From contig JAYSQC010000294.1 in NCBI GenBank assembly GCA_043721755.1, positions 20,839-84,838 of the forward strand: DNA of 64,000 nt, given 5' to 3'. The notes beneath the pieces are model-generated. The model had not been told where the DNA came from, searched no databases, and was given only the letters and a program-made list of their open reading frames with translations. The stretch's first letter is position 1, and each line of letters starts with the position of its first letter. This stretch comes from Schlesneria sp. (GTDB lineage Bacteria; Planctomycetota; Planctomycetia; Planctomycetales; Planctomycetaceae). This document shows, one piece after another, positions 8,505 through 60,874 of this stretch. The position numbers and the translations under genes are program-made.

Positions 8505-8514
8505 GAGACACAAT

Positions 8515-8945: not shown

Positions 8946-9020
8946 CGGCATGACGGGCGCTGGGCAGCACCGCCTGTTGAGCGGCTCAAGGTGCCCTCGC
9001 ACCGTGACTGGTCGATCGAC

Positions 9021-9587: not shown

Positions 9588-9735
9588 GTTCTCCTCCGTG
9601 AGTTGTTGATGAATCGTTGAAGTCCCCGACATCGGTCGGTCCCTTCAGTCTACGACAGACCGTTAAACAATCCGTTAACGCCCGTAAGGACACTCGCCGA
9701 ACTAGCGGCCAGCACTCCACAACACGCTCGCCAAC

Positions 9736-40282: not shown

Positions 40283-40882
40283 TCATGAGCCTTCGTGGGT
40301 ACGTTTGCCCTGATGAGTTGCCCAACGCGAGATCAGTTCGCCTCGCGTTGACACTGACAGCGTCTTGTAGATCGCCTTCGCATGGTCATGCACGGTAGCG
40401 ATGGTGATGCCCAGACGCGCTGCGACTTCCTTTTCAATGAGCCCTTGCACAAATAGGTCGAACACTCTGCGCTGGCCAGGTGTAAGGGGCGGAGCCTTCG
40501 ATTCAATGTCGCCACTTGCTGCGACTGGAAAGCTGGCCGAGCGAGTTGAGTCATCGGTACTCACGGTCTCTCTGACGGCTTCCACAATACCGGTGCAGAC
40601 CTTGAGCAGATACGGTCTGATGAGCACTTCAGTTCCACCACCGAATGCCTCGTCGCAATGAAGCAGACGCCCATTGAGGCGCGTACCGTTCCGACTCCCA
40701 AGGTCGCGAATTCGACAGCCATTCTCTGTCTTCAACAGGAGTGCGTGCTTCCGTGACACAAGGAGATCCGGGAGCCTGATCCCGCAGTCGTCATCACGGC
40801 CGATGACCGTCTCCGCAGCATCCAATTCCTGAATGCGATCGAACATCGATTCGTGACGAATCACGACATACAACTGGCCCAT
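40283..40882 (-). CDS. FHA-domain / LuxR-type HTH transcription regulator
   Basis: The FHA part is ETVIGRDDDCGIRLPDLLVSRKHALLL...IRDLGSRNGTRLNG. The LuxR HTH part is LTPGQRRVFDLFVQGLIEKEVAARLGITIATVHDHAKAIYKTLSVSTRGEL. Confidence 0.8.
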   Translation of the reverse strand: MGQLYVVIRHESMFDRIQELDAAETVIGRDDDCGIRLPDLLVSRKHALLLKTENGCRIRDLGSRNGTRLNGRLLHCDEAFGGGTEVLIRPYLLKVCTGIVEAVRETVSTDDSTRSASFPVAASGDIESKAPPLTPGQRRVFDLFVQGLIEKEVAARLGITIATVHDHAKAIYKTLSVSTRGELISRWATHQGKRTHEGS

Positions 40883-41655: not shown

Positions 41656-43347
41656 ATGGCCAAGAAAGCGGCGAAAATGGCGAAACGGGACGACAACGGC
41701 ATGGCGGCCTTCTGCATGCACAGCAATGACTCTCATTCAAAGCGGGCAATGTCAGCATTGACTAAGGAAAGGAGCGCAAGCCCGAGATTTTCCTTTGGTG
41801 CCGGTGTCACCGCTGTCTCACTCGATCCCGAAACGATTGCGTCTGCATATTTGCAACAAGCGCTGGGAAGTGAGGCAGTGCCGTCATTCGTAGCCCCCGT
41901 CGTGGAAAAGGTAGAAAGCGAGTTCAAGAGCATCGGCGCTGAGGCGATTCCACTGACGGGTACCACGGCGGTCAAGTTCCGCCAATTTCTGAACAAAATT
42001 CCAGTATATGGCTCGATAGTGACCGTCGAACTTGATGAGAATCACGAGTTGTTGGGAATCAACTCCTCGATTGGGTCGCCAGACCATGTCAACGCCATCG
42101 CCAAGATTTCTGCCAACGATGCCATCAAGAACGCCTTCGCCCACAAATCTGATGTCAAACCGGATTTCACCAGCGTTGTTCCGCGATTGAATTACTTTTA
42201 CGACGTTGCCAAATCGAAATGGCACCTTGCTTTCATCCTGGAAGACGTTCCTGTCCGTCGAGACAAAGCCAAAGGAACGATCCCTGTTTCTATGGACTAT
42301 GTCGTTGACGCGCAAACGGGAAAAGTGATCGCCACTCTGAACCGGACACCAACCGTTGCTGCGAGTGCTTCCGGCGACGACTGCTTCGGAGTCAATCGAA
42401 CCTTCCAAGTGGACAAGAACGGCAGCGTTTTGACGCTATTTGACCCTGGACTTAATGTGCAGACCTTCGATTTCAAGAATAAGGATCCAGAAATTCGATT
42501 CGGTCAATTGCCCGGTTCTCCCATTACAAATCCTCCGCAATTCACGGAATCGGCCGTCAGTACTCACGCTAATTCATCAGAAGTCTCACGTTTCATGCGT
42601 ACCACTCTCATGCGCAACAACATTGACAGTGTCGGTGGGCGCATGGCCTCGACGATCAACTGCATTGTTGTCAGCGAAAGCGTTGGGGGACTCGGAAAGG
42701 AATGGATCAACGCCTATTGGGACGGAACCCAAATGGTATACGGACTTCGATTGAACGGGACAAAGGTGATTTCGATGTCGGCTGCCCTAGACGTCGTGGC
42801 TCATGAACAGATGCACGGAGTGACGGACAAGACCTCGCGGTTGGAATACCGGATTCAATCCGGGGCGCTGAATGAGTCGTACTCCGATATTTTCGGCGTG
42901 ATAATCAACAATTTTGTGAAACCGGACCAAAGTACATGGAATTGGGAGATCGGTTCGGGATTGCTTCCAAGCGGGAGGCCGTTCCGCAACTTTGCAAATC
43001 CACCCGCCGAAGGTCAGCCGGATCACATGCGGGATTTCGTCGTCCTACCAGACACTCCGCGAGGCGATCACGGAGGGGTGCATACGAACAGTGGAATCCA
43101 CAACAAGGCCGCGCACAGCGTGCTGACCGCAGCAAAGACGGGAGGGTTTCTGTTTTCACCAAAGGAAGTGGCGATCATCTTCTACCTGGCACTCACTCAA
43201 CACCTCTCCCGAACGTCCCAATTTGCGGATAGCCGCCGTTCCGTCATTCAGTCTGCCCGAACGGTCTTTCGCAACCTGTCTCAGGCACAGTTGTCGATGC
43301 GCATCACGGCGATTGAGGACGCATTTACAAATGTAGGCATTGTTTGA
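41656..43347 (+). CDS. M4 (thermolysin-like) zinc metalloprotease with a propeptide-like N-terminus
   Basis: VVAHEQMHGVTD (HExxH) and GALNESYSDIFG (third Zn ligand Glu), plus GGVHTNSGIHNKA, are present. There is no obvious N-terminal signal peptide from the annotated start. Confidence 0.8.
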   Translation: MAKKAAKMAKRDDNGMAAFCMHSNDSHSKRAMSALTKERSASPRFSFGAGVTAVSLDPETIASAYLQQALGSEAVPSFVAPVVEKVESEFKSIGAEAIPLTGTTAVKFRQFLNKIPVYGSIVTVELDENHELLGINSSIGSPDHVNAIAKISANDAIKNAFAHKSDVKPDFTSVVPRLNYFYDVAKSKWHLAFILEDVPVRRDKAKGTIPVSMDYVVDAQTGKVIATLNRTPTVAASASGDDCFGVNRTFQVDKNGSVLTLFDPGLNVQTFDFKNKDPEIRFGQLPGSPITNPPQFTESAVSTHANSSEVSRFMRTTLMRNNIDSVGGRMASTINCIVVSESVGGLGKEWINAYWDGTQMVYGLRLNGTKVISMSAALDVVAHEQMHGVTDKTSRLEYRIQSGALNESYSDIFGVIINNFVKPDQSTWNWEIGSGLLPSGRPFRNFANPPAEGQPDHMRDFVVLPDTPRGDHGGVHTNSGIHNKAAHSVLTAAKTGGFLFSPKEVAIIFYLALTQHLSRTSQFADSRRSVIQSARTVFRNLSQAQLSMRITAIEDAFTNVGIV

Positions 43348-43355
43348 GGCTAATC

Positions 43356-44030
43356 ATGATTCAGTCGAGATATGACAGTCATGGAATCAAGTATCCGATC
43401 TCGCTTTTCCCATGTCCCGTCGATGGAAAGCGGTATCCCGCAGTGATGTTGATTCACGGAAATGCCGGATTGGTTCCGCCATATGGGGATCAGATTCGAG
43501 GCTTCGCCGAGGATCTATCGAAGCTTGGGTACTTCGCCGCCGTTCCCCAGTATTATCAGGATGATGCGGCACATCTGGGCGACACAACTCCTCATGTGCG
43601 GGCGATATCGGATGCGATTGCGGATGTCTCGAAACGCCCCGAAGTCGATCCGGCCAGAATCGGGCTGATTGGATTCTCGCTGGGTGCGACAACTTGCATG
43701 ACGCTGATCAGTTCCCAACCGAAGGGTACGATCTCAGTCTTCGCGGATTTCTTTGGATTTCTGACTCAAGAAATCAAACACGAAGTTGGCCGCTTTCCGC
43801 CCACCATCATTTTTCACAATCAGGATGATATTCCCGTTCCCGTTCAGAACTCGATTGATTTCGACGCATGGCTGACTTCAGCAGCGGTCACGCATCAATT
43901 CGTCAAGCCGTACAAAGAGGACTGGCAGGAAATCGATCATTCTTTCAAACCAGAAGGCGATGCGGACAAGGACTCTCGCAAACGGGCCACGGAATGGTTC
44001 GTCAAGTATCTACAACCAGTCGGAATATAG
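43356..44030 (+). CDS. Dienelactone hydrolase-like alpha/beta hydrolase
   Basis: AVMLIHGNAG and the nucleophile elbow IGLIGFSLGAT are present, with a C-terminal His region (DHSF). ATG is at 43356. Confidence 0.6.
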   Translation: MIQSRYDSHGIKYPISLFPCPVDGKRYPAVMLIHGNAGLVPPYGDQIRGFAEDLSKLGYFAAVPQYYQDDAAHLGDTTPHVRAISDAIADVSKRPEVDPARIGLIGFSLGATTCMTLISSQPKGTISVFADFFGFLTQEIKHEVGRFPPTIIFHNQDDIPVPVQNSIDFDAWLTSAAVTHQFVKPYKEDWQEIDHSFKPEGDADKDSRKRATEWFVKYLQPVGI

Positions 44031-44170
44031 TTACGCATTCGTAAGCTTTCTTTGATTGGAGCAGAGTTACGAGAGGGAGTTCGGCGCCCGTTGCGAAGCC
44101 CTGATGATACGGGTAGACTTATATTAACTTCTCGCCCTTGATGTTTTCATCCTCTTTTGACGAGTCAAAC

Positions 44171-46471
44171 ATGTTTTCGAGATCTCTCTTCGCCGTGGTC
44201 TTGGTGGGAGCGTTTGCAGGTAGCGAAGCGATCGTCGCGGCCGCTGACAATCTTAGCATCGGTGCCTGGAATATCGAATGGCTGGGCAAGCCCGAAAATC
44301 GGACGGGAGACGGGCGCAATGTCGCTCAGAAGCGTGAACACCTCGCCAAATACATCGCGGACAGCGGCGTTGCGGTTCTTTCGCTTGAGGAAATCTGCGA
44401 CGACGACGGCGACGCGGACACGATGCGCAACACAACGCTCAACGAAACGTTCGCCAAGCTCAATGAAGGCGGCGCCGCCGAGTGGGTCTATGAGCTGTTT
44501 CCTAAAAAGGACGCGGACGACTTAGACCAACACGTCGGCCTCGCGTGGAACGCCAAGGTTGTCACCAAAAAGGGCGATGCCTTCAAGCCGCCGGTCGATG
44601 ACTTTCACGCGGACTACAGTCTGCTCGAGCGCGGCGTGCGTGCGGCGAAGTTCAGTGTCGCCGACGGCAAGACCGACTTCGTGCTGCTCCCGCTGCATCT
44701 CAAATCGAATCGCGGCGGGGCGATCCCAACATCGCGGCAGCGAGCCGTCGAAGCTCGGCGGATTATGGACGTGCTCGCGCTGGTTGAAGCGCATTTCGAC
44801 GATCTGGACGTGGTCCTGCTCGGAGATTTCAATGCGTTGTCGGCATCCGAAGCGGCGGTCGCGCGGCTCATCGAGGGTGGATTTCGCGACCTCAACGCTG
44901 ACGATACGGCGACCTATATCTCGGGGGCGCCATTCGATCGTATTTTCGTCAAGTCGGACGAACCGGAATTCACCGCGTCCAATCTGACGGTCTTTCGCGA
45001 CCCGCAGCACACCAACGCGGAGCACAAGAAGCTGCTGTCTGACCATTTCATGGTCGTGTGCGACTTTGCCATCGGAGACGATGACGACACCGACGACATC
45101 GAGCCGCCGTCCCTCTCCCCGCCCACACGCGCTCGGCGGATTCCTGCGGCGGCTGAGTTGGCCGCGACGACTCTCGTGGCGGACGGCGACCAGGCGGCCC
45201 CCGACGACGAATTCCCGAGCCTCGCGACGAAGTATGAAGGCCCCAATCCCGATACAGACTTCCAACTGAGTCAAGACTACCCGCAGACCTATGTTGTCGA
45301 GCGTTTTTCCTGGGAGGATATCGACTTTCGGACGCACCCCAAGGCGTACATGACGACGGTACTCAAATACTGTTTTGAAGGCAACGAAGACCCCAAAGTG
45401 GATTTCGTCGTGCAGAAAAATCCGATCCGCAAGTGGTATCACGCGCCGTGGCTACACGACGACGGCGACGCGAACGGAGCCGGGCGTGAATACCTCCACG
45501 GCATGACCCGCGAACGTCGCTCGCGTCCTTTCGAGTTGCATCCGTTACAGAAGGACTTCGGCCAGAATTGGGCGGTCGGATTTTATAACGACCGCGGCGG
45601 CTACACGCTGGGCAACGTCTGGAAGACGCCCGACGGCAAGCCCAATCCCTATGCGAGCACGTTTCCGGACCACACAGTGTCTTTCAAATTGCTCTACACC
45701 GATGCGCCCGTCGAACAGGTTCCATTCCTCAAGGGTTCCAAGGCCTGGAACGCGCATATCTACGAGAATACCGACTACAAACTCCCCCGCGTCGTCCGTC
45801 CGATGCGTCTGTTGCAGGTCGACGTCGCAGTGAAAGATCCCCGCGCGGGGACGACCGGTTGGATCTTCGGGACCTTCATTTTCGACGGCTCGCGCGAGCA
45901 AAAGAAATTGATCGACAACTTAGTCTGCGTGGGGGCGTCGTGGGACGACGACGAGCACCTGGCGACTCCGCGCGAGGCCGACGCGATGGAGAATCCGTAC
46001 CTCCGCGGCTCGGTGATCAATAACGAATTGCTGGAGCCGGCGAAAGGTGACGCCGCTCGGATGTATCACCTCGGACTCGGCGGACGTATGAACGGGCCCG
46101 TCGATAACAAGATTTCGTCGTGTATCTCTTGCCACGGTCGCGCCGCCCTGGCTGTCCCCGTGACCAAGGATTTGTCGCCGGTAGGGGAAGCGCAAACTCG
46201 CGGGCGCTTAATGCCGTTCTTCAACGCGCTCGCGGCCAAGCCAAGCGATTTCTCGCCGGTGGAATTCGAGCGATTCTTCCGCCAGATTCGCGGCGCCAGC
46301 CATTTGGAAACGGACCTAGGCGTCACTTACGTCACGACCGATTATTCGCAGCAGGTCGCCGTCGGCATCCGCAACTACTGGCAGTCTCGAATCAACGCCG
46401 GGATTACGCGCAGCTTCCGCGCAAGAAATCCCGCCGACAATCTGCTGCGGGGCGGTCGCGGCGAAGAGTAG
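44171..46471 (+). CDS. Secreted EEP-family nuclease/phosphatase fused to a roughly 430-aa C-terminal domain with one CxxCH motif
   Basis: The signal peptide is MFSRSLFAVVLVGAFAGSEA. EEP motifs are IGAWNIEWLG, LLPLHLKS, VVLLGDFNA and SDHFMVVCDF. The C-terminal domain contains SSCISCHGRAA. Confidence 0.7.
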   Translation: MFSRSLFAVVLVGAFAGSEAIVAAADNLSIGAWNIEWLGKPENRTGDGRNVAQKREHLAKYIADSGVAVLSLEEICDDDGDADTMRNTTLNETFAKLNEGGAAEWVYELFPKKDADDLDQHVGLAWNAKVVTKKGDAFKPPVDDFHADYSLLERGVRAAKFSVADGKTDFVLLPLHLKSNRGGAIPTSRQRAVEARRIMDVLALVEAHFDDLDVVLLGDFNALSASEAAVARLIEGGFRDLNADDTATYISGAPFDRIFVKSDEPEFTASNLTVFRDPQHTNAEHKKLLSDHFMVVCDFAIGDDDDTDDIEPPSLSPPTRARRIPAAAELAATTLVADGDQAAPDDEFPSLATKYEGPNPDTDFQLSQDYPQTYVVERFSWEDIDFRTHPKAYMTTVLKYCFEGNEDPKVDFVVQKNPIRKWYHAPWLHDDGDANGAGREYLHGMTRERRSRPFELHPLQKDFGQNWAVGFYNDRGGYTLGNVWKTPDGKPNPYASTFPDHTVSFKLLYTDAPVEQVPFLKGSKAWNAHIYENTDYKLPRVVRPMRLLQVDVAVKDPRAGTTGWIFGTFIFDGSREQKKLIDNLVCVGASWDDDEHLATPREADAMENPYLRGSVINNELLEPAKGDAARMYHLGLGGRMNGPVDNKISSCISCHGRAALAVPVTKDLSPVGEAQTRGRLMPFFNALAAKPSDFSPVEFERFFRQIRGASHLETDLGVTYVTTDYSQQVAVGIRNYWQSRINAGITRSFRARNPADNLLRGGRGEE

Positions 46472-46523
46472 CCGCCGAATATCGTTTTCCACCTTATTTC
46501 ACTTAATAGCCGAAAGTGATTCC

Positions 46524-48632
46524 ATGGCCAGACTGCCGTATCTCATTCCCTACGACCCGACGTTTTTGGGCGCTGGATTTTCCGTGCCTCTGCCCGTTCC
46601 CGACGGCAGCGAGGCTGGGCGCGCGCTCCTAACAGAGTTGCTGGGCGAGGGCACCGTCTACGACTACATCCATTATAGCTTGGTTGTGCATGCGGCGCGG
46701 CGCCAAACGCTCTTCACCGCCTGCAACTTGGACGGCGATTTGCAAAAGCAAGCCACACGCGGCAGTTGGAGCATCGATAATCGACTCGCTGATTATCAGA
46801 TCGGCAACGAGGCATATCGCGATACACCCGGCAATCCCAATGCGTGGGACCGCGGACACTTGGTGCGGCGGCAAGACGTCTGTTGGGGCACCACGCGCGA
46901 GCGCGCGAAAGAGGCCAGCGATTCGACCTTCTTCTACACCAACTCGTCGTTGCAGCACCACAATTTCAACGGAGACGAATGGAATCAACTGGAAGACTGG
47001 GTTTTGGAGCGCGTCACGGAGGCGGCGCCGCGGCTATGCGTGCTGACGGGGCAGTTCCTCACCCCCGCCGATCCGTTGACCGTGGTGAATCCTGGCGTCT
47101 CGGTCCGGATTCCCACGGCATTCTGGAAAGTGATCGTCCTCCGTGATCCGACGGCCAACGGCGACGACCTGACCGCCGCTGCTTTCATCATGCCGCAGTC
47201 TGAGGAATTCATGCGCACGTTGGCTGGGCAGGACGCGCCTGTGTGGCCGAAGGAGAAACTGAAAACGTTCCAGGTCGAGATCGCCGATCTGGAGCAATTG
47301 AGCCGGCTCGATTTCGGCGACTTGCGGAATGTCGATGACTTCCCTTGGTCGGCCGTGCGGTTTCGGGCGGAGAAGATGTGGGAGGCGTGGCGGCCGATCG
47401 AAGAACCGGAGGATATCACGTTGGGCGGAACGCGACGCCGACGCGTCGGCGGAGGCCGGGCGCTACGCGTGCTCTCGAATCGCGCGCCGGCAGTTCCCTT
47501 CACGATCGTTGGCGAACCGGTCGGCGATGTTGTGCGTGGACTCGCCCAGTCGCCCGCAGCCGTGTCGCATGACTGCGGTTGCGGAGATGCGGAACCGGTC
47601 GCCCGGCGGGTGGCTAAGTTGGAGCACAAGCTCGAACAATTGGCCGACGTGATTCAGCAGTACGCGCGACAAAAAATCGACGAAGCAGACGAAATTGCCG
47701 ACAAGGTGAAAACCACGGCACTCCGGCCACCGGTCGCCTTTTCGTCGGATGCCGGCCCGACCCTCGATCTACCCGACGGCACGACCGTGACCGGCGCTGC
47801 GGAGATCTCGATCCGCGCGCTCGACATCCTCGCCGAGCAGTCTCGCCGCGATCACGGAAGAGCGGAAGAGCTGTACCTTAATGCGGCTCGTATCGTCGGC
47901 GGCACGCGGTCGGTCACCGGCGAGTTTCCCTCGTGCGTGCTGATCGGCGACGACTCGCGATTCTACTGCACAGGCGTCCTGATCGCCGAGCGGCTCGTGC
48001 TGACAGCAGCGCATTGCGGTCGCGATACGACGCGCATGCTGGCCGGCGTTGTTGATCAAGGACTGGCGGCGGTCAGTTCCGCGCAGCAGCGCAGCGTGGT
48101 GCGGTCCCTGCGGCATGCGGACTATCGGGAATCCCGGTTGCCGTGGAACGACCTGATGTTGTTGATCCTCGATCAGCCGATCGTGCCTTCCGATCTCGTC
48201 CAAGTCGTACCGTTGATGGATCGCAGTGAGCTGCAAGACTTCAATCAGGAAGTCGCCATCGTCGGTTTCGGAAATAACGACGCCGATTCCACCCGCGGCT
48301 TCGGCCGGCAGCGGAAGGCTTTGGTGCGCGTGGCGGATACGTTTAATGCGGGCTCGACAACGCCCGCCCAACTCCGTGAGATTCAGCGCACGAAGGGATT
48401 CAGCGCGCCGAACGAATTTTTCGCCGGAGCGGACAACTCGGGCATCGACACGTGCGAAGGGGATAGCGGCGGCCCCGTGTACGTCCGCGTCGGCAACGCA
48501 TGGAAGTTGCTCGGGATCACGTCGCGCCCGGCCGAAGGCTTCGACGTGCTCTGCGGCGACGGCGGGTTGTATGTGAGCGTCCCGTACTACACCGATTGGA
48601 TTCAAGAAATGCGAACTCGTTACCAAGTCTAG
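46524..48632 (+). CDS. DNA/RNA non-specific endonuclease (NUC/DRGH) fused to a trypsin-like serine protease
   Basis: The N-terminus has WDRGHLVRRQD...NSSLQHHNFNGDEWNQLE. The middle has a coiled coil. The C-terminus has IVGGTRSVTGEFPSC...LTAAHC, NDLMLLIL and CEGDSGGPVY, a complete triad. No signal peptide is visible. Confidence 0.8.
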   Translation: MARLPYLIPYDPTFLGAGFSVPLPVPDGSEAGRALLTELLGEGTVYDYIHYSLVVHAARRQTLFTACNLDGDLQKQATRGSWSIDNRLADYQIGNEAYRDTPGNPNAWDRGHLVRRQDVCWGTTRERAKEASDSTFFYTNSSLQHHNFNGDEWNQLEDWVLERVTEAAPRLCVLTGQFLTPADPLTVVNPGVSVRIPTAFWKVIVLRDPTANGDDLTAAAFIMPQSEEFMRTLAGQDAPVWPKEKLKTFQVEIADLEQLSRLDFGDLRNVDDFPWSAVRFRAEKMWEAWRPIEEPEDITLGGTRRRRVGGGRALRVLSNRAPAVPFTIVGEPVGDVVRGLAQSPAAVSHDCGCGDAEPVARRVAKLEHKLEQLADVIQQYARQKIDEADEIADKVKTTALRPPVAFSSDAGPTLDLPDGTTVTGAAEISIRALDILAEQSRRDHGRAEELYLNAARIVGGTRSVTGEFPSCVLIGDDSRFYCTGVLIAERLVLTAAHCGRDTTRMLAGVVDQGLAAVSSAQQRSVVRSLRHADYRESRLPWNDLMLLILDQPIVPSDLVQVVPLMDRSELQDFNQEVAIVGFGNNDADSTRGFGRQRKALVRVADTFNAGSTTPAQLREIQRTKGFSAPNEFFAGADNSGIDTCEGDSGGPVYVRVGNAWKLLGITSRPAEGFDVLCGDGGLYVSVPYYTDWIQEMRTRYQV

Positions 48633-48670
48633 ACTCGCGTTGCCGCAGGCTTCATTCAAAGGATTGCACC

Positions 48671-49453
48671 ATGCAAAAGAACTTCATGCTCGAGCGTGAC
48701 ACCCTCATGGCTCTCGGCGTGCTCGCGCGGGCGTACGTCGATTTCGACCCGCCAATTTCGACCGCGGCCAAGGCGCCGCACCCCCGCGGTTTCAACGTGC
48801 ATTGTCTGGTGCTAGACAATCGCGACGGCGAAGTGCTGGCAATGGCTCGAAATCAAATTCATGCCGAGGAGGATCCGCTCCAGCACGCCGAACAGGTCTG
48901 CATTCGATTGGCCATGAATCGGCTGAAGGCAAAACGTCCGCGGGCTGCGGGAAGGACTGTCGTCGACTACTACAAAGGCGACCTGTTCATGGAACCGGGG
49001 GTCGCCGAGGAGGATTTCGCTTTCAAAGGCTGCACGCTCTACAACACGTTCGATCCGTGCGGCTTCTGCGCCACAACCTCGTTGGTCTGCTACATGAAGC
49101 GCGTCGCGTATCTCTTCGAGGACAAGAAGTTCAACGGCGTCTATGACTTGATGAAGGAGAAGTATTTCACCAAGCGGGATTCCATTAAAGAGCCGACTCG
49201 CACGGACGAGCAGTCCGCCGGTTTCATCGCCCCGGCGAGCCGGTTGTTGCTCGGCGTGCGGAAGAAAGTGCATGACTTGGAGGAAGCCGGCACTGACCTT
49301 GTCCTAACTCTGGACCACTGCCGCGAGGAGTTGGCGGAGGCCGCAACACAGTTGGCTGAACTGAAGGCTGATCACCTGTCAACGACCGGCCCGGAAGGCG
49401 ATCGCAACCTGCGAACGCTAGAGGGGCTGCAGCGGATTGTGCTCGGGATCTAG
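48671..49453 (+). CDS. CDA-fold (cytidine/nucleotide deaminase-like) zinc-dependent deaminase
   Basis: ATG at 48671. LQHAEQVCI (H-A-E) and FDPCGFCA (PCxxC) are present. Confidence 0.6.
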   Translation: MQKNFMLERDTLMALGVLARAYVDFDPPISTAAKAPHPRGFNVHCLVLDNRDGEVLAMARNQIHAEEDPLQHAEQVCIRLAMNRLKAKRPRAAGRTVVDYYKGDLFMEPGVAEEDFAFKGCTLYNTFDPCGFCATTSLVCYMKRVAYLFEDKKFNGVYDLMKEKYFTKRDSIKEPTRTDEQSAGFIAPASRLLLGVRKKVHDLEEAGTDLVLTLDHCREELAEAATQLAELKADHLSTTGPEGDRNLRTLEGLQRIVLGI

Positions 49454-49979: not shown

Positions 49980-52532
49980 TTGAAAACCTCTCGAACCTGC
50001 CAGCCCCGGAAGTCACACCGCGTGTCCCCCACAGACCTCAAAACGCTGTTGGAAACCAGAGGAGCAATCCCAGATGCCGTCGTGGTGATGGGCAAGGAAT
50101 ATCGCTTTGAGGGAGACCAAGCGATCGACTCAGGATTGCACTCCGTTGTCTGGAAGGCAAAAGGTCCATATGGGCAGGATCGAGCGATCAAGATTCGCTC
50201 TCATCGTAGTAAGGGGAATCTGCTTGAGACGGTCAAAGCTAGTGAACTCGAAGCATGTAGCCAGTTTGCGAGGTTTGTCGACGCAGACACGATCGACTTA
50301 GATCTCGGTCTGAACGGCGTCGTGAAGGTAGACGTGTTCGTTGAGGAATGGATTCCTGGAATCACTCTGGAACAATTCGTGCGTGAGTCGCCTTCTGCGG
50401 TAACCCCAACGCTGATCCTCGGCTTCGTTTACGACATCTGTACGGCGCTCAACGCCTTGCGAGAAAAAGGGCTGTTCCACGGCGACCTGCATGACCGCAA
50501 CATCTTGATTGCCTCTCCTCCACTCGGTTCGTTGGACCAGCAAAACTCAATACGCATCGTGGATGTGGGGCGGTTGTCAAAAGTCACGGAAGACGATCAT
50601 CTAAGGGATCAATTCTACTTTGTCTCCCACCTCGTGAAACTGTGGAATGCGCTGCAGTCACGACAACGCGTGTCGCGGCGTGATCGCCGCTTTCTCCAAT
50701 ACACTGTCCCTTTGCTTCGCATGATGGTCGAAGACGATTCTGGTGTTGCCTTGCGAGACCCGAAAGCAATCGTCGACCGATTTGTTGACGCATTCTCTCG
50801 AGCTGATCTTCCCGTTCGACGAGAGCGATCAAAGCTACCATCACCATTTGACTTCATCTCGGCGGATCAGATTTCCGATGCGCGCCTGCTTGTTGACTTG
50901 TTCGCAAAATCATGTCCCTGGCTTGAAAAGGTGTCCGGGCCAGACCCCTGTCTTGTGACCGGTCCACGAGGATGTGGGAAATCCACTCTGTTTCGATGGC
51001 TCGCACTCCGAACTCACCTTGAGGCGCATCCCGAACTTCCTTCGTCGCAAATCGAGGGATTGACGGTCCTTGGTTTCTACGTCTCGTGTAGCGCAGATCT
51101 GCAGAACCGTCTGAGTTGGGCGAAATCCGATGAGATCGCACAATCTGCACAATCCTTTCTGGTGCATTACTTCAATATGATCTGCCTCCGCGAGGTCGCG
51201 GTCACGCTTTCACTGATTGCGAAGCGAACAGATCGTGATTCTTTCTGGGGGCTTAGTTCGCACGTTGAAACCCGTCTGCTCGAATTCGTGACAGCAATGC
51301 TTCGAGTTGACAGGCCGCTGCGCTTGGCTGGGAGTAGAAGGATCGACCAACTAGCCGAAATAGTCGACCGAGAGATATTTCAGCTCCACCTTTGCCGTGA
51401 CACATGGCAAGGTGGCACGTTTGCTACCGGAACGGCATTCTTGGGAGACCTTACGACTCTACTGAAGGACACCATTCCTGCGTTTGCTTCCCGTCAAATC
51501 GCTTTTCTGGTTGATGATTTCTCCGTTCATCGCATACACGCCCCCGTTCAAACGATCCTGAACCAAATTATTTGGGAGCGGCGACCAACGCATGTTTTCA
51601 AGCTCTCGTCCGAGAAGCACGGTGCCGTTCTCAACGATGCGTTGCTCGCATCGGCGGAGCTGTCGCGTGAAAGGCTGGAGATCGACTGCGGTAAGGAGTT
51701 TCTGGCACTGGATGACCATCAACAGCAAAAGCGGGCACTCGAATTTTCTCGGGAGCTACTCGACAATCGACTTGCAGCCGCAGGCTATGAAGGTCATTCG
51801 AACAACATCATTGGTGAATCGAATTGGGGGGAAGCGGGAAATCTACAGAAGGCACTCCAGGACACGGCGAGTCCCAAGAATAACCAGTACCACGGCATGC
51901 AGTGCATTGCCCAACTGTGTTCAGGAGATGTGTCTAGCCTCTTGATGGTGTACCGAGCGATATTTGAGGCCGGACATGTGACTCGGACAACGGAAAAAAT
52001 CGTTCCCGCAACCTTGCAGCATCAAGCAATCGTCAAGGTGTCGCGGAGCCTACTGGATGTAGTGAGGACGTACTATCCGCACGGACCAAAGCTCTTCGAG
52101 ATCCTAAACGCATTTGGAACTCTTGTCCGCCAGATCCTTGTCGAGGGTAGGTTGCAGTCGAACGAATCGCCAACGATGGCTCCCCGCATTGAAATCGACC
52201 AAGGTGGGCAACATATCGTGGACGAGCTTGAACAATATCAAAGTGACGTGGCATGGGAACTCGTCCGCCGCGCCCTGTTCATTGAGATGGAATCAGGCCT
52301 GTCTCGTCACGGTCGCGTGACGACCCTTCGCTGGCATGTCCGGCGAGTGTTTCTCCCCGCATTTAATGCCGCGTTGTCCAAGAACGATGCCATTAAACGT
52401 AAGGTGGACTGGCTGCGATGGTTTCTCGATTCACCGAAAGAGGCCACCGACCAGGAATGGAAAGGATGGCCAAAGCGCAACGCCCCTAAACCAGAGACGC
52501 GTTACAGAAACCTTCCGGGATTGGAGGAATAG
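49980..52532 (+). CDS. Protein kinase-like domain fused to a P-loop NTPase (AAA/ORC-Cdc6-like)
   Basis: Kinase motifs are GLHSVVWKA, RAIKI, LFHGDLHDRNILI and IRIVDVG. Walker A is VTGPRGCGKSTLFRWL and Walker B-like is IAFLVDDFS, followed by a helical tail. The TTG start in the track is uncertain. Confidence 0.7.
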   Translation: MKTSRTCQPRKSHRVSPTDLKTLLETRGAIPDAVVVMGKEYRFEGDQAIDSGLHSVVWKAKGPYGQDRAIKIRSHRSKGNLLETVKASELEACSQFARFVDADTIDLDLGLNGVVKVDVFVEEWIPGITLEQFVRESPSAVTPTLILGFVYDICTALNALREKGLFHGDLHDRNILIASPPLGSLDQQNSIRIVDVGRLSKVTEDDHLRDQFYFVSHLVKLWNALQSRQRVSRRDRRFLQYTVPLLRMMVEDDSGVALRDPKAIVDRFVDAFSRADLPVRRERSKLPSPFDFISADQISDARLLVDLFAKSCPWLEKVSGPDPCLVTGPRGCGKSTLFRWLALRTHLEAHPELPSSQIEGLTVLGFYVSCSADLQNRLSWAKSDEIAQSAQSFLVHYFNMICLREVAVTLSLIAKRTDRDSFWGLSSHVETRLLEFVTAMLRVDRPLRLAGSRRIDQLAEIVDREIFQLHLCRDTWQGGTFATGTAFLGDLTTLLKDTIPAFASRQIAFLVDDFSVHRIHAPVQTILNQIIWERRPTHVFKLSSEKHGAVLNDALLASAELSRERLEIDCGKEFLALDDHQQQKRALEFSRELLDNRLAAAGYEGHSNNIIGESNWGEAGNLQKALQDTASPKNNQYHGMQCIAQLCSGDVSSLLMVYRAIFEAGHVTRTTEKIVPATLQHQAIVKVSRSLLDVVRTYYPHGPKLFEILNAFGTLVRQILVEGRLQSNESPTMAPRIEIDQGGQHIVDELEQYQSDVAWELVRRALFIEMESGLSRHGRVTTLRWHVRRVFLPAFNAALSKNDAIKRKVDWLRWFLDSPKEATDQEWKGWPKRNAPKPETRYRNLPGLEE

Positions 52533-52535
52533 TTG

Positions 52536-53648
52536 ATGCCCCTGATATCCCAAGTCAGCATTGACGATGTAATCGCGAACTCTCCAACCGTGGAGTCCTT
52601 GAACGTCGAGTGGCTCCGATTGAATCCCCCAAGCATCTATGTTTGTGCCCAGGGGTTTGAAGATCGCTGCACGGCCATTGCGGCATCAATCTCTGCAGCA
52701 GAAATTCGCCTCCAACGAGTCATCGTCGTCAGCCTGCGGTCAAACAGCGAGAAGGATCAGGAGAATGGACATCGAGTCGTTGAAATGCTCAGAACGCATT
52801 CGGTACACGATCCAGTCTTGATTGATGGAGATGAGTCGGGCTTTCACCTCAGAATGGCCAGCGCTTTGGGTGGCGAATCAAACTCGCTCACAGAGGACGA
52901 CCACGTCCTGCTCGACATCAGTGTCGCCGCAAATCGCGTATGTCTCCGTGCTATTGAATGTCTTCTGCGGCACAACTGTCAGTTGACTGTCGGCTATGCG
53001 GAAGCTGCTGTGTATCACCCGGGACAAGCAGCATTCCAAGATGATGAAGCGGCGTGGATGTCGGAGGACAGCTTGGGAACCGAGAAGGGAGTCGAGAACA
53101 TCAGTCCATGCGATGAGTTTCTAGGTGAACACCTTGAAGCCGCATCAAACGTCGTTGTGCTTCTCCCGAGTTTTCGGCATGAACGAAGCGCGGCTGTCAT
53201 CAGCCACGTCGATCCCGCCCTGTTGATCAATCCGACAGACGACGTGATCTGGGTATTGGGGCGTCCCCATCTGAATCAAGACCTTTGGAGGCGCGACGCC
53301 ATGCGAAAGATCAACAAGATCACGGACGAAGCGAAGGTGTTTGAAGCCAGCACCTTCGACTACCGTGAAGCATGGCGCATCCTCGAGCAGGTCTACAGCG
53401 AATGTTGGGAAGGCTCAAACATTACGCTGTCTCCGCTTGGTTCGAAAATGCAGGCGCTGGCAGTGACGTTGTTTTGCATTCGTCACCCGGATGTTCGCGT
53501 ACTTCTTTCAACGCCTCAGCAGTACAACACGCAGCAATGGTCCGAGGGAGTGCGTGACTTATGGCGAGTCTCCTTTGGCTCCGCGCGTGAGTTTGTGGAC
53601 GATATTCTTCGAGCGGGTACATTGCAGCTTGAGGGCATCGATCTCTGA
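52536..53648 (+). CDS. Unknown 370-aa partner protein, tightly coupled to the kinase-ATPase gene
   Basis: The ATG lies 4 nt after the upstream stop. Alternating beta/alpha-like segments are visible (IYVCAQGFEDRC..., VLLDISVAANRV..., VVVLLPSFRHERS...). I recognise no motif. Confidence 0.5.
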   Translation: MPLISQVSIDDVIANSPTVESLNVEWLRLNPPSIYVCAQGFEDRCTAIAASISAAEIRLQRVIVVSLRSNSEKDQENGHRVVEMLRTHSVHDPVLIDGDESGFHLRMASALGGESNSLTEDDHVLLDISVAANRVCLRAIECLLRHNCQLTVGYAEAAVYHPGQAAFQDDEAAWMSEDSLGTEKGVENISPCDEFLGEHLEAASNVVVLLPSFRHERSAAVISHVDPALLINPTDDVIWVLGRPHLNQDLWRRDAMRKINKITDEAKVFEASTFDYREAWRILEQVYSECWEGSNITLSPLGSKMQALAVTLFCIRHPDVRVLLSTPQQYNTQQWSEGVRDLWRVSFGSAREFVDDILRAGTLQLEGIDL

Positions 53649-55037
53649 TCAGTCGCTATGGCTGCCATCGGGCCACAGGGCGTAGTGGGATCTGGCGAAA
53701 TCCGCAAATGACGGATCGCGTTCGGCGCGGTTCAGCAGCCATCGTTCCCGAAACCAAGCAAAGATATCATCTGCTTGCCGGTCGTAGAATTGAAGACTTG
53801 GACTGTCACCGCGAAGGAATTCAGCAGAATTTGAAGCCGTCGGGACCACGTAAACCTCGCGTTGAACGCCGTGGTAGAGCAGATCCTGATGAAGCCCGGC
53901 GGCATGAATGCACTTCTTGACCACTTCACGTCTGTTTCGGAATCCCGTGCCCCAGAGTTCGCTCTTGGCTGTCGGAATAAGCCGTTGAGTTGCGAACGCA
54001 CGCATCTCGTCGTAGAGACCATTCAGGAACTGAAACTCTCCTGATCCGCGAGTGAATCCAACTGGAATGAACATTGACTCGGATCGAAATTTCAATCGGT
54101 TGTAAAGAGACGAACGTCCAAGAGCGGACGTAGTCGTGATAAGAGCAACTTCGCCGGACCGCTCAGCTTGGCTGATCAAGGATTCTCTGCCGCCATACTT
54201 TTGCTGAAAGCGAGATGTGACCTCGCGACTAGCTGCCAGCATCGCAACGAGCTTCCCACACAGGAGGTGAGTGTAGGGCGGCACTGCCCCAAGAACGAAT
54301 GCGTCGAGTACATGATTGAGTCCAACCCTTCGTTGCTGGGAAGTCCAGCCGATCCAATTGTCTCGCGGCGCAAGCGCAAAGACGGGATCACCGAGACCGA
54401 TTACACCCATCAGTTTGTTATTCGCGGCATCCATGACAACGTAACGGAGTCGTCGACCGTAACCTGACGAAACTGGGATGGACCAGTGCAAGCAGGCATA
54501 TCGAAAGAGGAGTTCTTCAGTCGATCCCGGCAGGACTTCAATCAGTGCTGGCGATATCGACTGCGGCAAAACCTCATCGCCATTGGCAATCCATTCCAAC
54601 AAATCGGATTCCTTTCGGCCAAGGGTGCCACGCGCAATGTCACGTTTGTGGGCAACCGCCTCTGTATGAAGTTGTCGCAACCGATCCTTGTCCGTCGCAT
54701 CCGGAAACACGAGTCGGCCACCGCTGAAGCGGAATCCCTGCCTTCGGAGTGACTTTAGAATCCGAGCACGAATGATCCTTCGTTTGTCACCAGAAATCGC
54801 AGCAATCAACTCATCCCTGTTTCCAGATGCCGGAAGGTCGAGCCGCAGTGCCAGTTGTTGAAGTTCCTTGCCCGGCAAAGTGTCGAGAATTGAAGGGAGG
54901 GTGCATTTGCGTGCCGATGCGACAGACGTGAGTAGGTCGTGCTTTTTCTTCCCCTTCAAATCAATGGCGCAGTGCTTTGCGATCTTGGCCAACTGGCGAA
55001 CCGACAACGCGGAGAGAACGGCAATTCGAGATCGCAC
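53649..55037 (-). CDS. DUF4338 (DruA-like) protein with two N-terminal SAP-like motifs
   Basis: GRRLRYVVMDAANNKLMGVIGLGDPVFALAPRDNWIGWTSQQRRVGLNHVLDAF...KYGG resembles the DUF4338 core as I recall it. SAP-like segments are LSVRQLAKIAKHCAIDLKGKKKHDLL and LQQLALRLDLPASGNRDELIAAI. The start appears to be GTG. Confidence 0.55.
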   Translation of the reverse strand: MRSRIAVLSALSVRQLAKIAKHCAIDLKGKKKHDLLTSVASARKCTLPSILDTLPGKELQQLALRLDLPASGNRDELIAAISGDKRRIIRARILKSLRRQGFRFSGGRLVFPDATDKDRLRQLHTEAVAHKRDIARGTLGRKESDLLEWIANGDEVLPQSISPALIEVLPGSTEELLFRYACLHWSIPVSSGYGRRLRYVVMDAANNKLMGVIGLGDPVFALAPRDNWIGWTSQQRRVGLNHVLDAFVLGAVPPYTHLLCGKLVAMLAASREVTSRFQQKYGGRESLISQAERSGEVALITTTSALGRSSLYNRLKFRSESMFIPVGFTRGSGEFQFLNGLYDEMRAFATQRLIPTAKSELWGTGFRNRREVVKKCIHAAGLHQDLLYHGVQREVYVVPTASNSAEFLRGDSPSLQFYDRQADDIFAWFRERWLLNRAERDPSFADFARSHYALWPDGSHSD

Positions 55038-55810
55038 AGCGAATTCACCTTGGTTTTTCAGTGGTTACATTTGGATCGAATGCATCATGCTTGGGACAAC
55101 ATTATTGCGTAGGTTCGGATTGGGCAGCTTCCTGCGAGCGTGGCGACCTGATTTTACCCAACCGGCATGCGACTTGCGAACCGCTCCGTGCGCAAACACC
55201 AGTGAGTCTTGCAAAATCAACTGGCTTCAGAGACATCACCGTGTCATGGCACCTGTGAAATATAGCGTGCCAGCATTTTTCCGCGACTTTGGGGCAAGTT
55301 CTTGACATTACTCAAAACTCGGCACAAAGATGACATTCACCCAAGCCGCTACTGGGCAGTGGAACCCAGCCTGTCGGCTCTGTCATGCCAGACATTGAAG
55401 CCAACTCGATAGGCATCTCTGGGGTACTGAACAAGGCCATTTGGTCTCTGGCCAAACCAATCGAAACCCGTACTCGAGCCGCGCCGAGTCCGCTTCAGAT
55501 ACGATTCTTGGAGCTTCAGTTTGCTAGCCCATCCCAACGCATCGAGTGCCTCTCCGTGATCGGGGGAACCTCGACGGATTGCGGATCACCTTTCGCAGTG
55601 GGCTGAACTGTGTGATCGGTGAGCGGGGGCCAGCAAGACGATGGCGGTGGAGTTCGTCGGCTATGCGCTCTATGCACTGCCGCACCGGGAGCGTGCGGCC
55701 TCCAAAGCCGAAGCTCTCTCTGCGGCTCGTCGTGTTGTCTGGTGACACCGGCGAAACATCTCCTTGATTCAACGTCATATGTGATGTATGATTGGGCAAG
55801 GAGATTTGTT

Positions 55811-58094: not shown

Positions 58095-59474
58095 CTAAAG
58101 CCGCCGGTTCAACCGGTCTTCAACAATTTGCTGGATGACTCTCGAATCGAAGACCTGTCCGCCAAACAGCCGGAATAGTTGCTTGACGATCGATTCGACA
58201 TGCAACCCGATTGCCGAAATTGCGATCGACACTGGGATAGTTGCATGGGTAACAAAATCATTCTGCGTTGCGAGACCATGAGACCAGAAGAATCGCTCTT
58301 GGCTTCCGAGACGACGACCGGCCAATCCTTTCCAGCGAAGGGCAAAAGTGACGTGATTATCACTTTCTTCACCGCAAAAAGCCTTTGCGAACAACAGGAC
58401 AACGGCGATTACTTCTGCAATTCGAGCGGTCTCGTACACGAACTCCAAGTACTGCAGTTGCGGCTTCTGCGAGAAATCGCCCGGTAGCGGTTCGAGGTAG
58501 TAGAACTTCCCTGAACTCTCAATCCGGCTGAAATCCAGAATGTGGAAAACACCATCGTCGTAGGTCAGAACATCCATCCCACTCGGGTCGTATCGAACAT
58601 CGTCAATCCTTGCCGACATATTCAGGAATGCGACGAACGGTGCCCATCCTGACATGCGTTGGAAATGGCCAAACTGCTGCATGAATTCATCATCGAGGGT
58701 TGGCTGCTCGAACTTGCCACTGATCGCAGCAGAGACTTCGCGAGTTCCGATCTTCGGTAGCGGCTTCGCACGTGCTTTGACCTGACCGAGGTATTTGGAA
58801 AACCCGATCTCCAAGAACTCTTCCGCGAGTTCCTGGGCGTCTGGCCCCTTAGCAACCTTCAAAATCTCGAATAGGACTGAGGCGGTCGATTCGATGTCCA
58901 AGCCGGAGAGCTGCCGCCGCATGAATGCCCCGATATCCGCCTCTCGATTGTTGAAGCAGGTCTCCATGATTCGGGGCCAGTCCGAAAGTTTAGCGATGGA
59001 AGTGCTTGGCCGACCATTTGACTTCAGTGTTCTGACATAGACAGCGCTTTCCTGGACTAGAGTTCCGGCCTCATGCTCGGCCGTCGCTTGTCTGGGAAGG
59101 TTGCTCCGGCAGATGATCGGGGTGCGAATACCGGCTGGCACTTCGATGACAACTCGTTCCATTCCATTGAAGTCGACGAAATGAACTGTGATTTCGAATG
59201 CGTCAGATGCGTACTTGGTCACGATTTCCTGAACCACATCATGTTGGAATGCGGTTCGAACATCGGAAATGTGAGTACGATTATCCGTGGACCCATCGTC
59301 GTTCATGCCAATGACAAGGCATCCTCCATCAGCATTTCGCAGTGCCATGCACCCTTTTGCGATGATGGATTTTCCGAACTCTTCTGACGGCGGAAACCAA
59401 GGCTTGAATTCTGTATTCAGGCTCTCTCGTCCCGCTTGCAGAAGTTGCGTCAGATCGTCTTCGCTAAGGGCCAT
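58095..59474 (-). CDS. AlbA_2/Schlafen-like putative DNA-binding domain protein
   Basis: The N-terminus is LTQLLQAGRESLNTEFKPWF...GCMALRNADGGCLVIGMNDDGS, which fits the E..EFK AlbA_2 pattern. The roughly 300-aa C-terminus is unknown. Confidence 0.5.
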   Translation of the reverse strand: MALSEDDLTQLLQAGRESLNTEFKPWFPPSEEFGKSIIAKGCMALRNADGGCLVIGMNDDGSTDNRTHISDVRTAFQHDVVQEIVTKYASDAFEITVHFVDFNGMERVVIEVPAGIRTPIICRSNLPRQATAEHEAGTLVQESAVYVRTLKSNGRPSTSIAKLSDWPRIMETCFNNREADIGAFMRRQLSGLDIESTASVLFEILKVAKGPDAQELAEEFLEIGFSKYLGQVKARAKPLPKIGTREVSAAISGKFEQPTLDDEFMQQFGHFQRMSGWAPFVAFLNMSARIDDVRYDPSGMDVLTYDDGVFHILDFSRIESSGKFYYLEPLPGDFSQKPQLQYLEFVYETARIAEVIAVVLLFAKAFCGEESDNHVTFALRWKGLAGRRLGSQERFFWSHGLATQNDFVTHATIPVSIAISAIGLHVESIVKQLFRLFGGQVFDSRVIQQIVEDRLNRRL

Positions 59475-59551
59475 TTCAGAATCCTCTGCCGAACGATCCA
59501 ATTCAGTATTCAGTGTTCAGGGCGTGTCAAACGCATCACAGCTTGACGAAG

Positions 59552-59830
59552 CTACCCTCGATATCCCGACGCTCGAACGGCTCGCGCGGCGTGCAGAAAC
59601 AGCAATTCCCGGTCATAGGCCCGCTGGAAACCATCCAGGCGGAATCGGATGTACGACTCGGCCTTTCCCTCGGCCTGGAGCTTGTTGGCCAGATCGTTGC
59701 CACGCACTTCAAAGTCGTGCATGGCTTCCTCCAGTCCGCCGATCAGTTCGTCATACGCTCTTTCCCAATCAAGTCCTTTGGCGACCATGTCGCAAAGAAC
59801 CGTCCGCACGTTGTCTTCTGGATTTCGCAT
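59552..59830 (-). CDS. Hypothetical 92-aa protein
   Basis: ATG ORF between the HNH gene and the AlbA_2 gene on the same strand. Confidence 0.3.
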   Translation of the reverse strand: MRNPEDNVRTVLCDMVAKGLDWERAYDELIGGLEEAMHDFEVRGNDLANKLQAEGKAESYIRFRLDGFQRAYDRELLFLHAARAVRASGYRG

Positions 59831-59845
59831 GTCTTCTCCAAGGGT

Positions 59846-60874
59846 TCACGTAATTGTCATAGTCTCTGATGTCGTTTCGACACTGACCGTGATTCGTGTG
59901 CTATCAGGCGAGCCCAGTGGAAGGGTTTTTCTCACTGGAACTCCGAAATCGTAATCGAGACCGGCAAACGATGGGTAAGGTGGTATCGTCACCTTCTCGC
60001 CGACGAGGTGATCGTCCTTTGGGGTACAAGGCAACATGATTTGAAAACTCTGATTCATTGTGGTCACGACGTAGATCATTGACGGTAGAAGAGCAGTATC
60101 GTCCTTTCGCCGTAGGAGCAGCGACCATCCAAAACCGGGCTGCATGGGTCCTGGAAGGAACGTGTTGTAGCAAGACAACCAAGCGAAGTGCTGGGCATCC
60201 ACGGTGTGGTCGGGATTCATGACCCAGTTGATTGTGTGGCTGTAATTCGGCAAGTCTGCCTCTGGCATCACGGTCAACGCCATCTTTGCGAAACATTTGA
60301 AAACGGCCATCGGGACGAACGGTTGAGTCTCGGCGGTGACGACCATCTGATTCGACTCAGGTCGCAGCTCGACGATGTTGTCCGTTAGATAGTTCTGCAT
60401 TTCGATCATGCCGTTCACGATGTCGATCCGTGACTTGCCGGCTCGGGTCTTGTAGGAACTGATACCGCCCTTAGATCGGATCAGGGTCAACGAGCTGGTC
60501 GCAGATAGCAACTTTCCGAGATCGTTCTCGACGTTGCGAGCGAAGAGGCCGTTGCATGTATCGCATTCGTAAAACGAAATGATTGCCTTATTGCCGATAA
60601 GCTCCGGTAGGGCATGCGCAACGCTACGAAAGTTGACCGCCGGGGCCGATCGCCCACAAAACCGACAGTGCTTCAAAGCCCTGTCGCCAAGGTGGATTTT
60701 CTCTTCAGCAACCAAAGGGTAAAAATTCACGACATCATAATTCTTCGCAAAGAAGAGTTGTTGTTCGGCCACGAGCCAATCCATTAGATCGAAACCATCC
60801 TTGCTCCCACGCTCCGTGAACAGCCTGAAGGCAAGAGTTTCAATTTCGTGACGTGTACCATGCCGAATGGGCAT
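59846..60874 (-). CDS. DUF2934-like N-terminus + HNH (HNH_5-like) endonuclease domain protein
   Basis: IETLAFRLFTERGSKDGFDLMDWLVAEQ is DUF2934-like. CRFCGRS...FRSVAHALPELIGNK...YECDTCN gives a CxxC...H...CxxC HNH zinc finger. Confidence 0.55.
   Translation of the reverse strand: MPIRHGTRHEIETLAFRLFTERGSKDGFDLMDWLVAEQQLFFAKNYDVVNFYPLVAEEKIHLGDRALKHCRFCGRSAPAVNFRSVAHALPELIGNKAIISFYECDTCNGLFARNVENDLGKLLSATSSLTLIRSKGGISSYKTRAGKSRIDIVNGMIEMQNYLTDNIVELRPESNQMVVTAETQPFVPMAVFKCFAKMALTVMPEADLPNYSHTINWVMNPDHTVDAQHFAWLSCYNTFLPGPMQPGFGWSLLLRRKDDTALLPSMIYVVTTMNQSFQIMLPCTPKDDHLVGEKVTIPPYPSFAGLDYDFGVPVRKTLPLGSPDSTRITVSVETTSETMTIT

Follow-up and report, generated by a model that had tools for sequence, protein, structure and literature searches.

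A protein kinase joined in one chain to an AAA+ ATPase and a CARF domain was described computationally by Makarova et al. in 2014 (Front Genet), who proposed a role in kinase-mediated signalling for this family (PMC4012209). The components of BREX type 2/Pgl include the methylase PglX, the ORC/Cdc6-clade ATPase BrxC, and the kinase PglW, which also contains winged-helix modules and an ORC/Cdc6-like module that is inactive (PMC12839542). The Aravind laboratory classes DUF4338, the family of the Druantia type I protein DruA, as a GNAT domain (PMC10853773). Here we analyse a stretch of 64,000 nucleotides from Schlesneria sp. (contig JAYSQC010000294.1, positions 20,839 to 84,838 of the forward strand; hereafter the window), in which genes for a kinase–ATPase fusion (gene A), a CARF protein (gene B), and a DruA protein (gene C) lie side by side at ~50.0–55.04 kb. 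An earlier reading of the same DNA (the original prediction) had put forward genes A and B as a candidate two-gene defence or conflict module. On balance, we favour the explanation that the three genes form a mobile, modification-linked immune cassette of BREX/Pgl-like design, which is kinase-based and nuclease-free. The features of the locus are as follows.

50022..52532, + strand: gene A, kinase–ATPase fusion, 836 amino acids (aa) with a probable GTG start; the open reading frame (ORF) 49980..52532 has 850 aa and a TTG start
50067..50820, + strand: Hanks-type kinase domain of gene A, residues ~30–280, with K71, E83, H167-x-D169, N174, and D195-x-G197
50844..51818, + strand: ORC/Cdc6-like AAA+ core of gene A, residues 289–613, with Walker A at 328–336 and Walker B at D512 and D513
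51819..52484, + strand: C-terminal helical region of gene A, residues ~614–835, delimited by AlphaFold2 (AF2) secondary structure and conservation
52522..52526, + strand: GGAGG ribosome-binding site of gene B within the 3' end of gene A, read from the sequence
52536..53648, + strand: gene B, 370 aa, ATG start (ORF 52533..53648)
53649..55037, − strand: gene C (DruA/DUF4338), 462 aa, convergent with gene B and abutting it
55151..55180, − strand: sigma-70-like promoter match, 114 nt upstream of the DruA-like start; the sole match in the region, by consensus only

Kinase–ATPase gene A and CARF gene B

The real start of gene A is probably GTG 50022, because the N-termini of its closest homologues begin at the site that matches MSPTDLK and coincides with this codon; the nearest full-length relative (P0076) has 836 residues and begins with MSPSELK. 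The stop codon TAG of gene A occupies positions 52530–52532, and the ATG of gene B starts at the fourth base after it, leaving a 3-nt spacer. With the GGAGG inside the end of gene A and so short a spacer, gene B is probably translationally coupled to gene A. In a promoter and terminator scan, matches were no more numerous than in shuffled sequence.

Gene A is composed of a kinase domain, an ATPase core, and a helical tail. Pfam gives a partial kinase match (PF07714, 4e-9) and an ORC-CDC6-like match that covers residues 289–613 (PF24389, 7.5e-31). A PDB search with a profile of 23 gene A homologues retrieves Hanks kinases (PknA, EGFR, ULK, and others) over positions 30–195, and the best Foldseek matches of the AF2 model (pLDDT 77.9) are MPS1, GAK, TTBK1, and PknB, with probability 1.0. 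The kinase motifs GLHSVVWKA (residues 52–60), RAIKI (68–72), HGDLHDRNILI (167–177), and VDVG (194–197) are followed by the NTPase motifs GPRGCGKST (328–336) and FLVDDFS (509–515). In particular, residues K71, E83, H167, D169, N174, and D195 of the kinase are identical in all 67 full-length gene A homologues, which share 23–100% identity; the P-loop GPRGCGKST, including the invariant K334, and the Walker B residues D512 and D513 are identical in the same 67 proteins. The complete conservation of the catalytic residues indicates that both enzymes are under strong purifying selection. As predicted from these motifs, gene A apparently encodes an active kinase and an active P-loop ATPase.

The Walker A P-loop of gene A contains an Arg residue. 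The tail that follows the ATPase core is mostly helical with short strands and carries two near-invariant residues, R784 and R788. Judged from the model, it is a putative lid and DNA-binding module resembling a winged helix.

Gene B has no match in Pfam or NCBIfam, and a sequence search of the PDB returns nothing for either gene B or DruA. In PADLOC, 13 models named "CARF6--CARF_CARF_CARF" match gene B, the best of them at 3e-20 over residues 20–340. The AF2 model, built with 39 homologues (pLDDT 92.6, pTM 0.92), folds into two Rossmann-like halves, which are CARF-like and lie in a single chain at residues ~30–170 (with the motif DISVAANR) and ~200–345 (with PLGSKMQ). Foldseek matches this model to the tandem-CARF protein Csm6 (9w3u, 9e-5) and to Can1 (6sce, probability 1.0, TMq 0.48), and further to Csa3, Csx1, Cam1, Cad1, and the ring nuclease 7z55 (overall E 9e-5 to 1e-2). 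On the grounds of the PADLOC CARF6 matches and of the fold shared by the AF2 model with CARF proteins, gene B is, as modelled, a single-chain tandem CARF protein of the CARF superfamily.

Fifteen positions of gene B are invariant among 66 sequences (G40, F41, E42, R44, D127, S129, Y160, P162, R252, T273, Y276, G302, S303, K304, and Q306). In the N-terminal half, the motif GFExR follows strand 1 and the motif DxS follows strand 4; in the C-terminal half, GSKxQ follows strand 4'. Motifs so placed would have the appearance expected of a ligand pocket.

Both proteins match one fused PADLOC model, PDLC01925 ("CARF6--CARF_STK_AAA", 1187 residues). Its positions 85–716 match gene A at 1.1e-29, which is the best PADLOC match of gene A, and its positions 871–1178 match gene B at 1.5e-9. 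Gene A also fits the description of the AAA+ domain by Makarova et al., because GPRGCGKST, with its P-loop Arg, is invariant. By sequence, genes A and B together are thus a member of the kinase–AAA+–CARF family of that paper and of PDLC01925. Natural fusions of A and B into a single chain occur as well (P0119, and P0333 with 1219 aa, in which kinase, ORC-CDC6-like, and CARF domains are joined); the split genes are the common form, and the fused form is like PDLC01925.

Most of what the original prediction said about the anatomy of the pair stands: the 850-aa frame and its downstream partner lie at the coordinates it gave, all the motifs it quoted are present in the translation, the ATG at 52536 comes right after the stop of gene A, and the fusion of a kinase with a P-loop NTPase agrees with the Pfam matches, the fold matches, and the catalytic conservation. 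The partner that it could place in no family turns out to be the tandem CARF protein described above, through PADLOC CARF6 and the Foldseek matches to Can1, Csm6, and Csa3. The Foldseek comparison that it had proposed for both proteins leads from gene B to CARF proteins and from gene A to kinases; the search with the whole of gene A is swamped by kinase matches, and the ATPase is assigned from profile and motifs, the tail from modelled secondary structure and conservation.

Conservation, mobility, and the exchangeable third gene

A scan of a genome collection yields 77 true relatives of gene A, spread over Planctomycetota, Acidobacteriota, Gemmatimonadota, Chloroflexota, Actinomycetota, Verrucomicrobiota, Desulfobacterota, Nitrospirota, Pseudomonadota, Methanomicrobia, Bathyarchaeota, and further groups. 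Homologues of gene A fall into more than 246 clusters, and those of gene B, among 1.84 billion proteins, into 1906 clusters at 50% identity, numbers far beyond chance. In every locus with DNA downstream of A (73/73, from ~20 phyla of bacteria and archaea), a B homologue follows A directly on the same strand.

Gene C is a clear member of the DruA family (Pfam DruA 1.6e-108; PADLOC DruA 5.6e-108), with a weak SAP-like DNA-binding motif at its N-terminus (Pfam SAP, 3.4e-4). A DruA-type gene adjoins A–B, within ~900 bp, in 34 loci from many phyla, the window counted. These loci belong to the clades nearest to the window. In the closest clade, the position and strand of DruA vary; in an intermediate clade, DruA is short and divergent, lies on the same strand as A, and overlaps the start of A. 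In a distant clade of ~34 loci, the gene directly upstream of A is an N6/N4 DNA methyltransferase, co-directional with A and overlapping it. This clade-II methyltransferase has the motif I DPFSGSGT and the motif IV SPPY, belongs to PF01555, and matches the PADLOC model MTase_II at up to 2e-18. The two types of third gene occur together in none of the loci, and the type tracks the clade of A and B.

In all, a putative modifier gene, for DruA or the methyltransferase, adjoins the pair in ~68 of the 74 evaluable loci and is missing from only 4–5 of them; in four loci, the end of the contig is too close to A for the call to be made. The few copies of the cassette with neither DruA nor methylase include loci L018, L063, and L022. 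At L022, the place directly upstream is taken by a KAP/AAA_16-type P-loop NTPase (8562–9776), which may represent another form of the third component.

Because DruA and the methyltransferase are mutually exclusive in one conserved cassette, we hypothesize that DruA supplies a DNA self mark. A Pfam match to the phage DNA-modification family Mom is seen in 7 of 32 cassette DruA proteins (best 5.7e-6).

Close relatives resemble the window at positions 50001–55043 only, which is exactly A, B, and DruA. In a metagenome-assembled genome of Planctomycetaceae (L001), this block is flanked by genes homologous to window positions 28–1778 and 7181–8921. The limits of the shared block and the different insertion site indicate that the three genes move as a unit. 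The patchy distribution of the cassette over the ~20 phyla, where copies from different phyla share 45% identity, argues for horizontal transfer. A, B, and DruA are also present on two viral contigs from IMG/VR. There, the CARF gene is separated from the convergent DruA gene by an extra ORF of 393 aa (L081, 4600–5778; L082, 4687–5865); this ORF is not present in the window.

No fourth gene emerges from neighbour clustering over the 77 loci or from a PADLOC scan of 116 neighbours, and the clustering finds no conserved cyclase, Cas10, CRISPR array, or nuclease near the cassette. The unit is almost certainly one of three genes, A, B, and a modifier, and it is mobile and widespread.

Neighbourhood, proposed mechanism, and rival explanations

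The GC content falls from ~0.60–0.62 to 0.52–0.55 at ~49 kb and stays there through the end of the window. Gabija, Fic (PDC-S04-like), Schlafen-like, and HNH genes lie in this lower-GC zone within 10 kb of the cassette. Pfam and PADLOC confirm these genes and DruA, and with them the defence-island setting that the original prediction had recognized. Searches of the 64-kb window for tRNAs, Rfam families, and CRISPR arrays found none. The neighbouring features are as follows.

60976-63964, − strand: Gabija pair, with GajB of 633 aa (PADLOC 3.6e-224) and a GajA ORF of 365 aa
55619-56793, + strand: overlapping genes for a helix-turn-helix (HTH) protein (PF01381) and a Fic protein (PADLOC PDC-S04 3e-23; SoFic 2e-12)
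58095-60874, − strand: adjacent genes for a Schlafen/AlbA_2 protein (468 aa) and an HNH_5/DUF2934 protein (342 aa)
41656-49453, + strand: co-directional run of degradative enzymes, possibly secreted, just upstream of the cassette, where GC is higher

The GajA ORF covers only positions 234–597 of the 604-residue GajA profile, and GajA is N-terminally truncated or split, or disrupted near the edge of the window. The HTH–Fic pair beside the cassette probably forms a small module of its own, for defence or as a toxin. The Schlafen/AlbA_2 and HNH_5-DUF2934 proteins have no match in PADLOC and may be another candidate defence pair. The upstream run of degradative enzymes consists of a thermolysin-like peptidase of the M4 family, a dienelactone hydrolase, an EEP-family protein of 777 aa, a 702-aa fusion of a non-specific endonuclease with a trypsin-like protease, and a cytidine/MafB19-like deaminase of 317 aa; the ORF of the deaminase overlaps the gene before it. 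The window also has a giant ORF of 2965 aa (17480–26377, + strand) and an ORF of 199 aa (40283–40882, − strand) with a weak local match (4.8e-7, residues 132–175) to the C-terminal part of the PADLOC models "CARF3--CARF"; the latter match is probably just an HTH region.

From its context, the cassette is fairly likely to be a defence system. For its specific mechanism, we infer a tentative order of events. The modifier, either DruA (GNAT-like, weakly Mom-like, and with a SAP-like N-terminus) or the N6/N4 methyltransferase, would mark the host's own DNA. The ORC/Cdc6 ATPase and the helical, winged-helix-like tail of gene A would bind and scan DNA, and the tandem CARF protein would work in physical contact with the kinase–ATPase. 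The pseudo-dimer formed by its two halves may bind a ligand of nucleotide type, such as a stress nucleotide or one derived from phage, for which the cassette itself encodes no synthesizing enzyme. Once unmarked DNA, the ligand, or both are sensed, the kinase would be switched on and could then phosphorylate host or phage proteins and so block replication or arrest the cell, with no dedicated nuclease involved. It is possible, if somewhat doubtful, that DruA is specifically a Mom-like DNA modifier of GNAT fold that can be swapped with the methyltransferase. In that case, the cassette would amount to a minimal restriction-modification system that has no nuclease, in which the ORC/Cdc6 ATPase reads the mark, a cyclase-independent tandem CARF protein senses an infection-derived nucleotide, and the kinase executes immunity.

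Several observations weigh against parts of this immune explanation. The defence role rests on context, and this context is moderate in other genomes, where defence matches are scattered and not dominant among the 116 nearest neighbours of the cassette. Gene A is absent from the plasmid and phage records of the annotated collections searched. No signal-making enzyme is linked to the CARF gene, and the kinase is assumed to be the effector, there being no conserved nuclease or classical effector. The kinase itself is atypical. It has the K71, E83, HxD, N174, and D195 of the "complete eukaryotic-like kinase core" of the original prediction, but with a degenerate glycine-rich loop, and neither an activation segment nor an APE motif can be recognized; weak matches to atypical and small-molecule kinases (ABC1/UbiB, Bud32) are seen as well. 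On both counts, its substrate may be something other than a protein. As for DruA, the Pfam matches to Mom are below the gathering score, and the alignment of a DruA profile with phage Mu Mom by hhalign is not significant (E=0.71). DruA could acetylate proteins or small molecules, not DNA.

The last possibility leads to an alternative in which the cassette is defensive and DruA is a second effector or toxin, acting by acetylation of protein, tRNA, or small molecules in abortive infection, with no self-marking. The weak link between DruA and Mom fits this alternative, as does the view of the Aravind laboratory on DUF4338-GNAT and S/T/Y (serine/threonine/tyrosine) kinase domains fused to DndF, which are taken for suicidal co-effectors with protein targets (PMC10853773). 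However, the sister clade has in that place a canonical S-adenosylmethionine-dependent N6/N4 DNA methyltransferase, hardly a toxin, and the DruA of the window bears the SAP-like DNA-binding motif. Druantia type II, as attributed to Doron et al. in 2018, is moreover said to contain a methylase and to lack DruA. We consider a toxin role for DruA unlikely. We give similarly little credence to a non-immune module for signalling or regulation, in which, by analogy with RtcR, the CARF protein would control a kinase/AAA+ switch for stress or epigenetic state. The absence of a nuclease or toxin domain and the sparse defence matches among neighbours in other genomes are consistent with such a module, and a signalling role is what Makarova et al. 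suggest (PMC4012209). It is at odds with the horizontal transfer of the cassette and the insertion sites that differ between relatives, and likewise with the IMG/VR copies, the obligate pairing with a DNA methyltransferase or DruA, and the defence island in the window.

The CARF fold of gene B raises the question of a cyclic oligoadenylate (cOA) signal. If A–B were a classical cOA effector, B would sense cOA made by a Cas10 or CBASS cyclase elsewhere, and DruA would be unrelated. The best structural matches of B do bind cOA (Can1, Csm6, Csa3, and Cam1), and PADLOC groups the matching models with CRISPR-ancillary CARF families. Neither a CRISPR array nor a cas gene is present in the window, however; DruA and the methylase are the sole recurrent partners in the clustering of the 77 loci, with no conserved cyclase or Cas10, and the cassette moves as a self-contained block of three genes. 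Such an effector is therefore quite improbable. Least probable of all, and very much so, is that the module consists of A and B only, as in the original prediction, with DruA, there an optional piece of context, as the chance-adjacent remnant of an incomplete Druantia type I. In the window, DruA is indeed on the opposite strand, and its placement is variable in the closest clade. The check on conservation across genomes that the original prediction had proposed shows the A–B pair to be tightly coupled. The 34 independent loci with a neighbouring DruA-type gene nevertheless make DruA a conserved member, replaced by a methyltransferase in the sister clade; it lies inside the block common to relatives, whose flanks are not shared, the window has no DruB–E, and in the intermediate clade it is co-directional with A, whose start it overlaps. 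The two-gene reading is largely refuted by the adjacency of DruA and by the shared block. The immune cassette of three genes is the explanation that we carry into the comparison below.

Comparison with known systems

Hanks-type kinases in a defence setting are also found in Stk2, PD-T4-6, the TerY-P kinase, and the mad6 kinase of MADS. The likeness of gene A to the kinases of abortive-infection systems is confined to ~80 residues of the kinase core, where PADLOC gives weak matches to mad6 (2.2e-8, residues 123–198) and PD-T4-6 (1e-6). None of these systems has an ORC/Cdc6 fusion, a CARF partner, or DruA. MADS, with its eight genes mad1-8, was rejected as an assignment, since the matches are local and limited to mad6, mad8 (3e-3, P-loop), and mad2 (4e-6, clade-II methylase), and the other mad genes are absent.

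Gene B resembles Can1 and other sensors, tandem-CARF or SAVED, of type III CRISPR and CBASS in that two Rossmann CARF-like halves form a pseudo-dimer. Unlike Can1 and Csm6, it has no fused nuclease or HEPN domain and no linked Cas10 or cyclase, and its motifs GFExR, DxS, and GSKxQ are specific to the gene B family and differ from those of Can1-type sensors. An ancillary effector of CRISPR or CBASS was rejected, given that there is no CRISPR array in the window and no conserved Cas10 or cyclase among the neighbours of the 77 loci. If the cassette is immune, it would have a CARF sensor that works without a CRISPR or CBASS cyclase and drives a protein kinase rather than a nuclease.

With Druantia type I, the cassette shares a clear DruA/DUF4338 member, but here DruA partners a kinase–ATPase and a CARF protein. 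Druantia type I, including incomplete forms, was rejected because no genes like DruB, DruC, DruD, or DruE are adjacent; the 40–64 kb part of the window contains no ORF of more than 850 aa. An immune role for the cassette would offer a concrete hypothesis for what DruA does in Druantia type I, a point on which the preprint on YprA and Druantia is silent, namely to provide a DNA self mark, and if DruA were a Mom-like modifier, Druantia type I would gain its missing self-marking step.

The family of Makarova et al. has in common with genes A and B the S/T/Y kinase, the distinctive AAA+ domain with a P-loop Arg, and CARF. Here, in contrast, these domains are split over two genes, Pfam detects no Zn-ribbon, and an obligate third gene for DruA or a methylase is present, which is unmentioned in the 2014 text. 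The domain combination is already catalogued as a sequence observation, by Makarova et al. and by PADLOC as CARF_STK_AAA. The original prediction, which did not recognize the architecture as a named system, was thus right that no named and tested system matches; its proposed PADLOC check of the proteins agrees, and no named or tested system of this composition was found in PADLOC or the searchable literature, the 2020 CARF census, presumably the source of the PADLOC labels, aside. What goes beyond the 2014 text is the third component and the swap between DruA and methylase, which hint at the immune mechanism favoured here and at a testable function for DruA; the domain pair has been known for a decade.

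The closest parallel in overall design is BREX type 2/Pgl, which likewise combines a DNA modifier, an S/T/Y kinase, a P-loop module of ORC/Cdc6 type, and winged-helix parts, with no obvious classical restriction nuclease (PMC12839542). Membership of BREX type 2/Pgl was rejected, as genes A and B match no BREX model in PADLOC (PglZ, BrxC, PglX, or PglW) at E<=1. Neighbour clustering finds no conserved PglZ-like gene near the cassette, and the likeness is architectural only. Unlike PglW, the cassette has an ORC/Cdc6 module that is catalytically intact, and neither a NERD nuclease nor a pseudokinase is part of gene A. Unlike BREX, it adds a CARF subunit and has three genes where BREX has six or more. 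If immune, the cassette would be a compact and tractable relative, spread over ~20 phyla, of the poorly understood BREX/Pgl logic.

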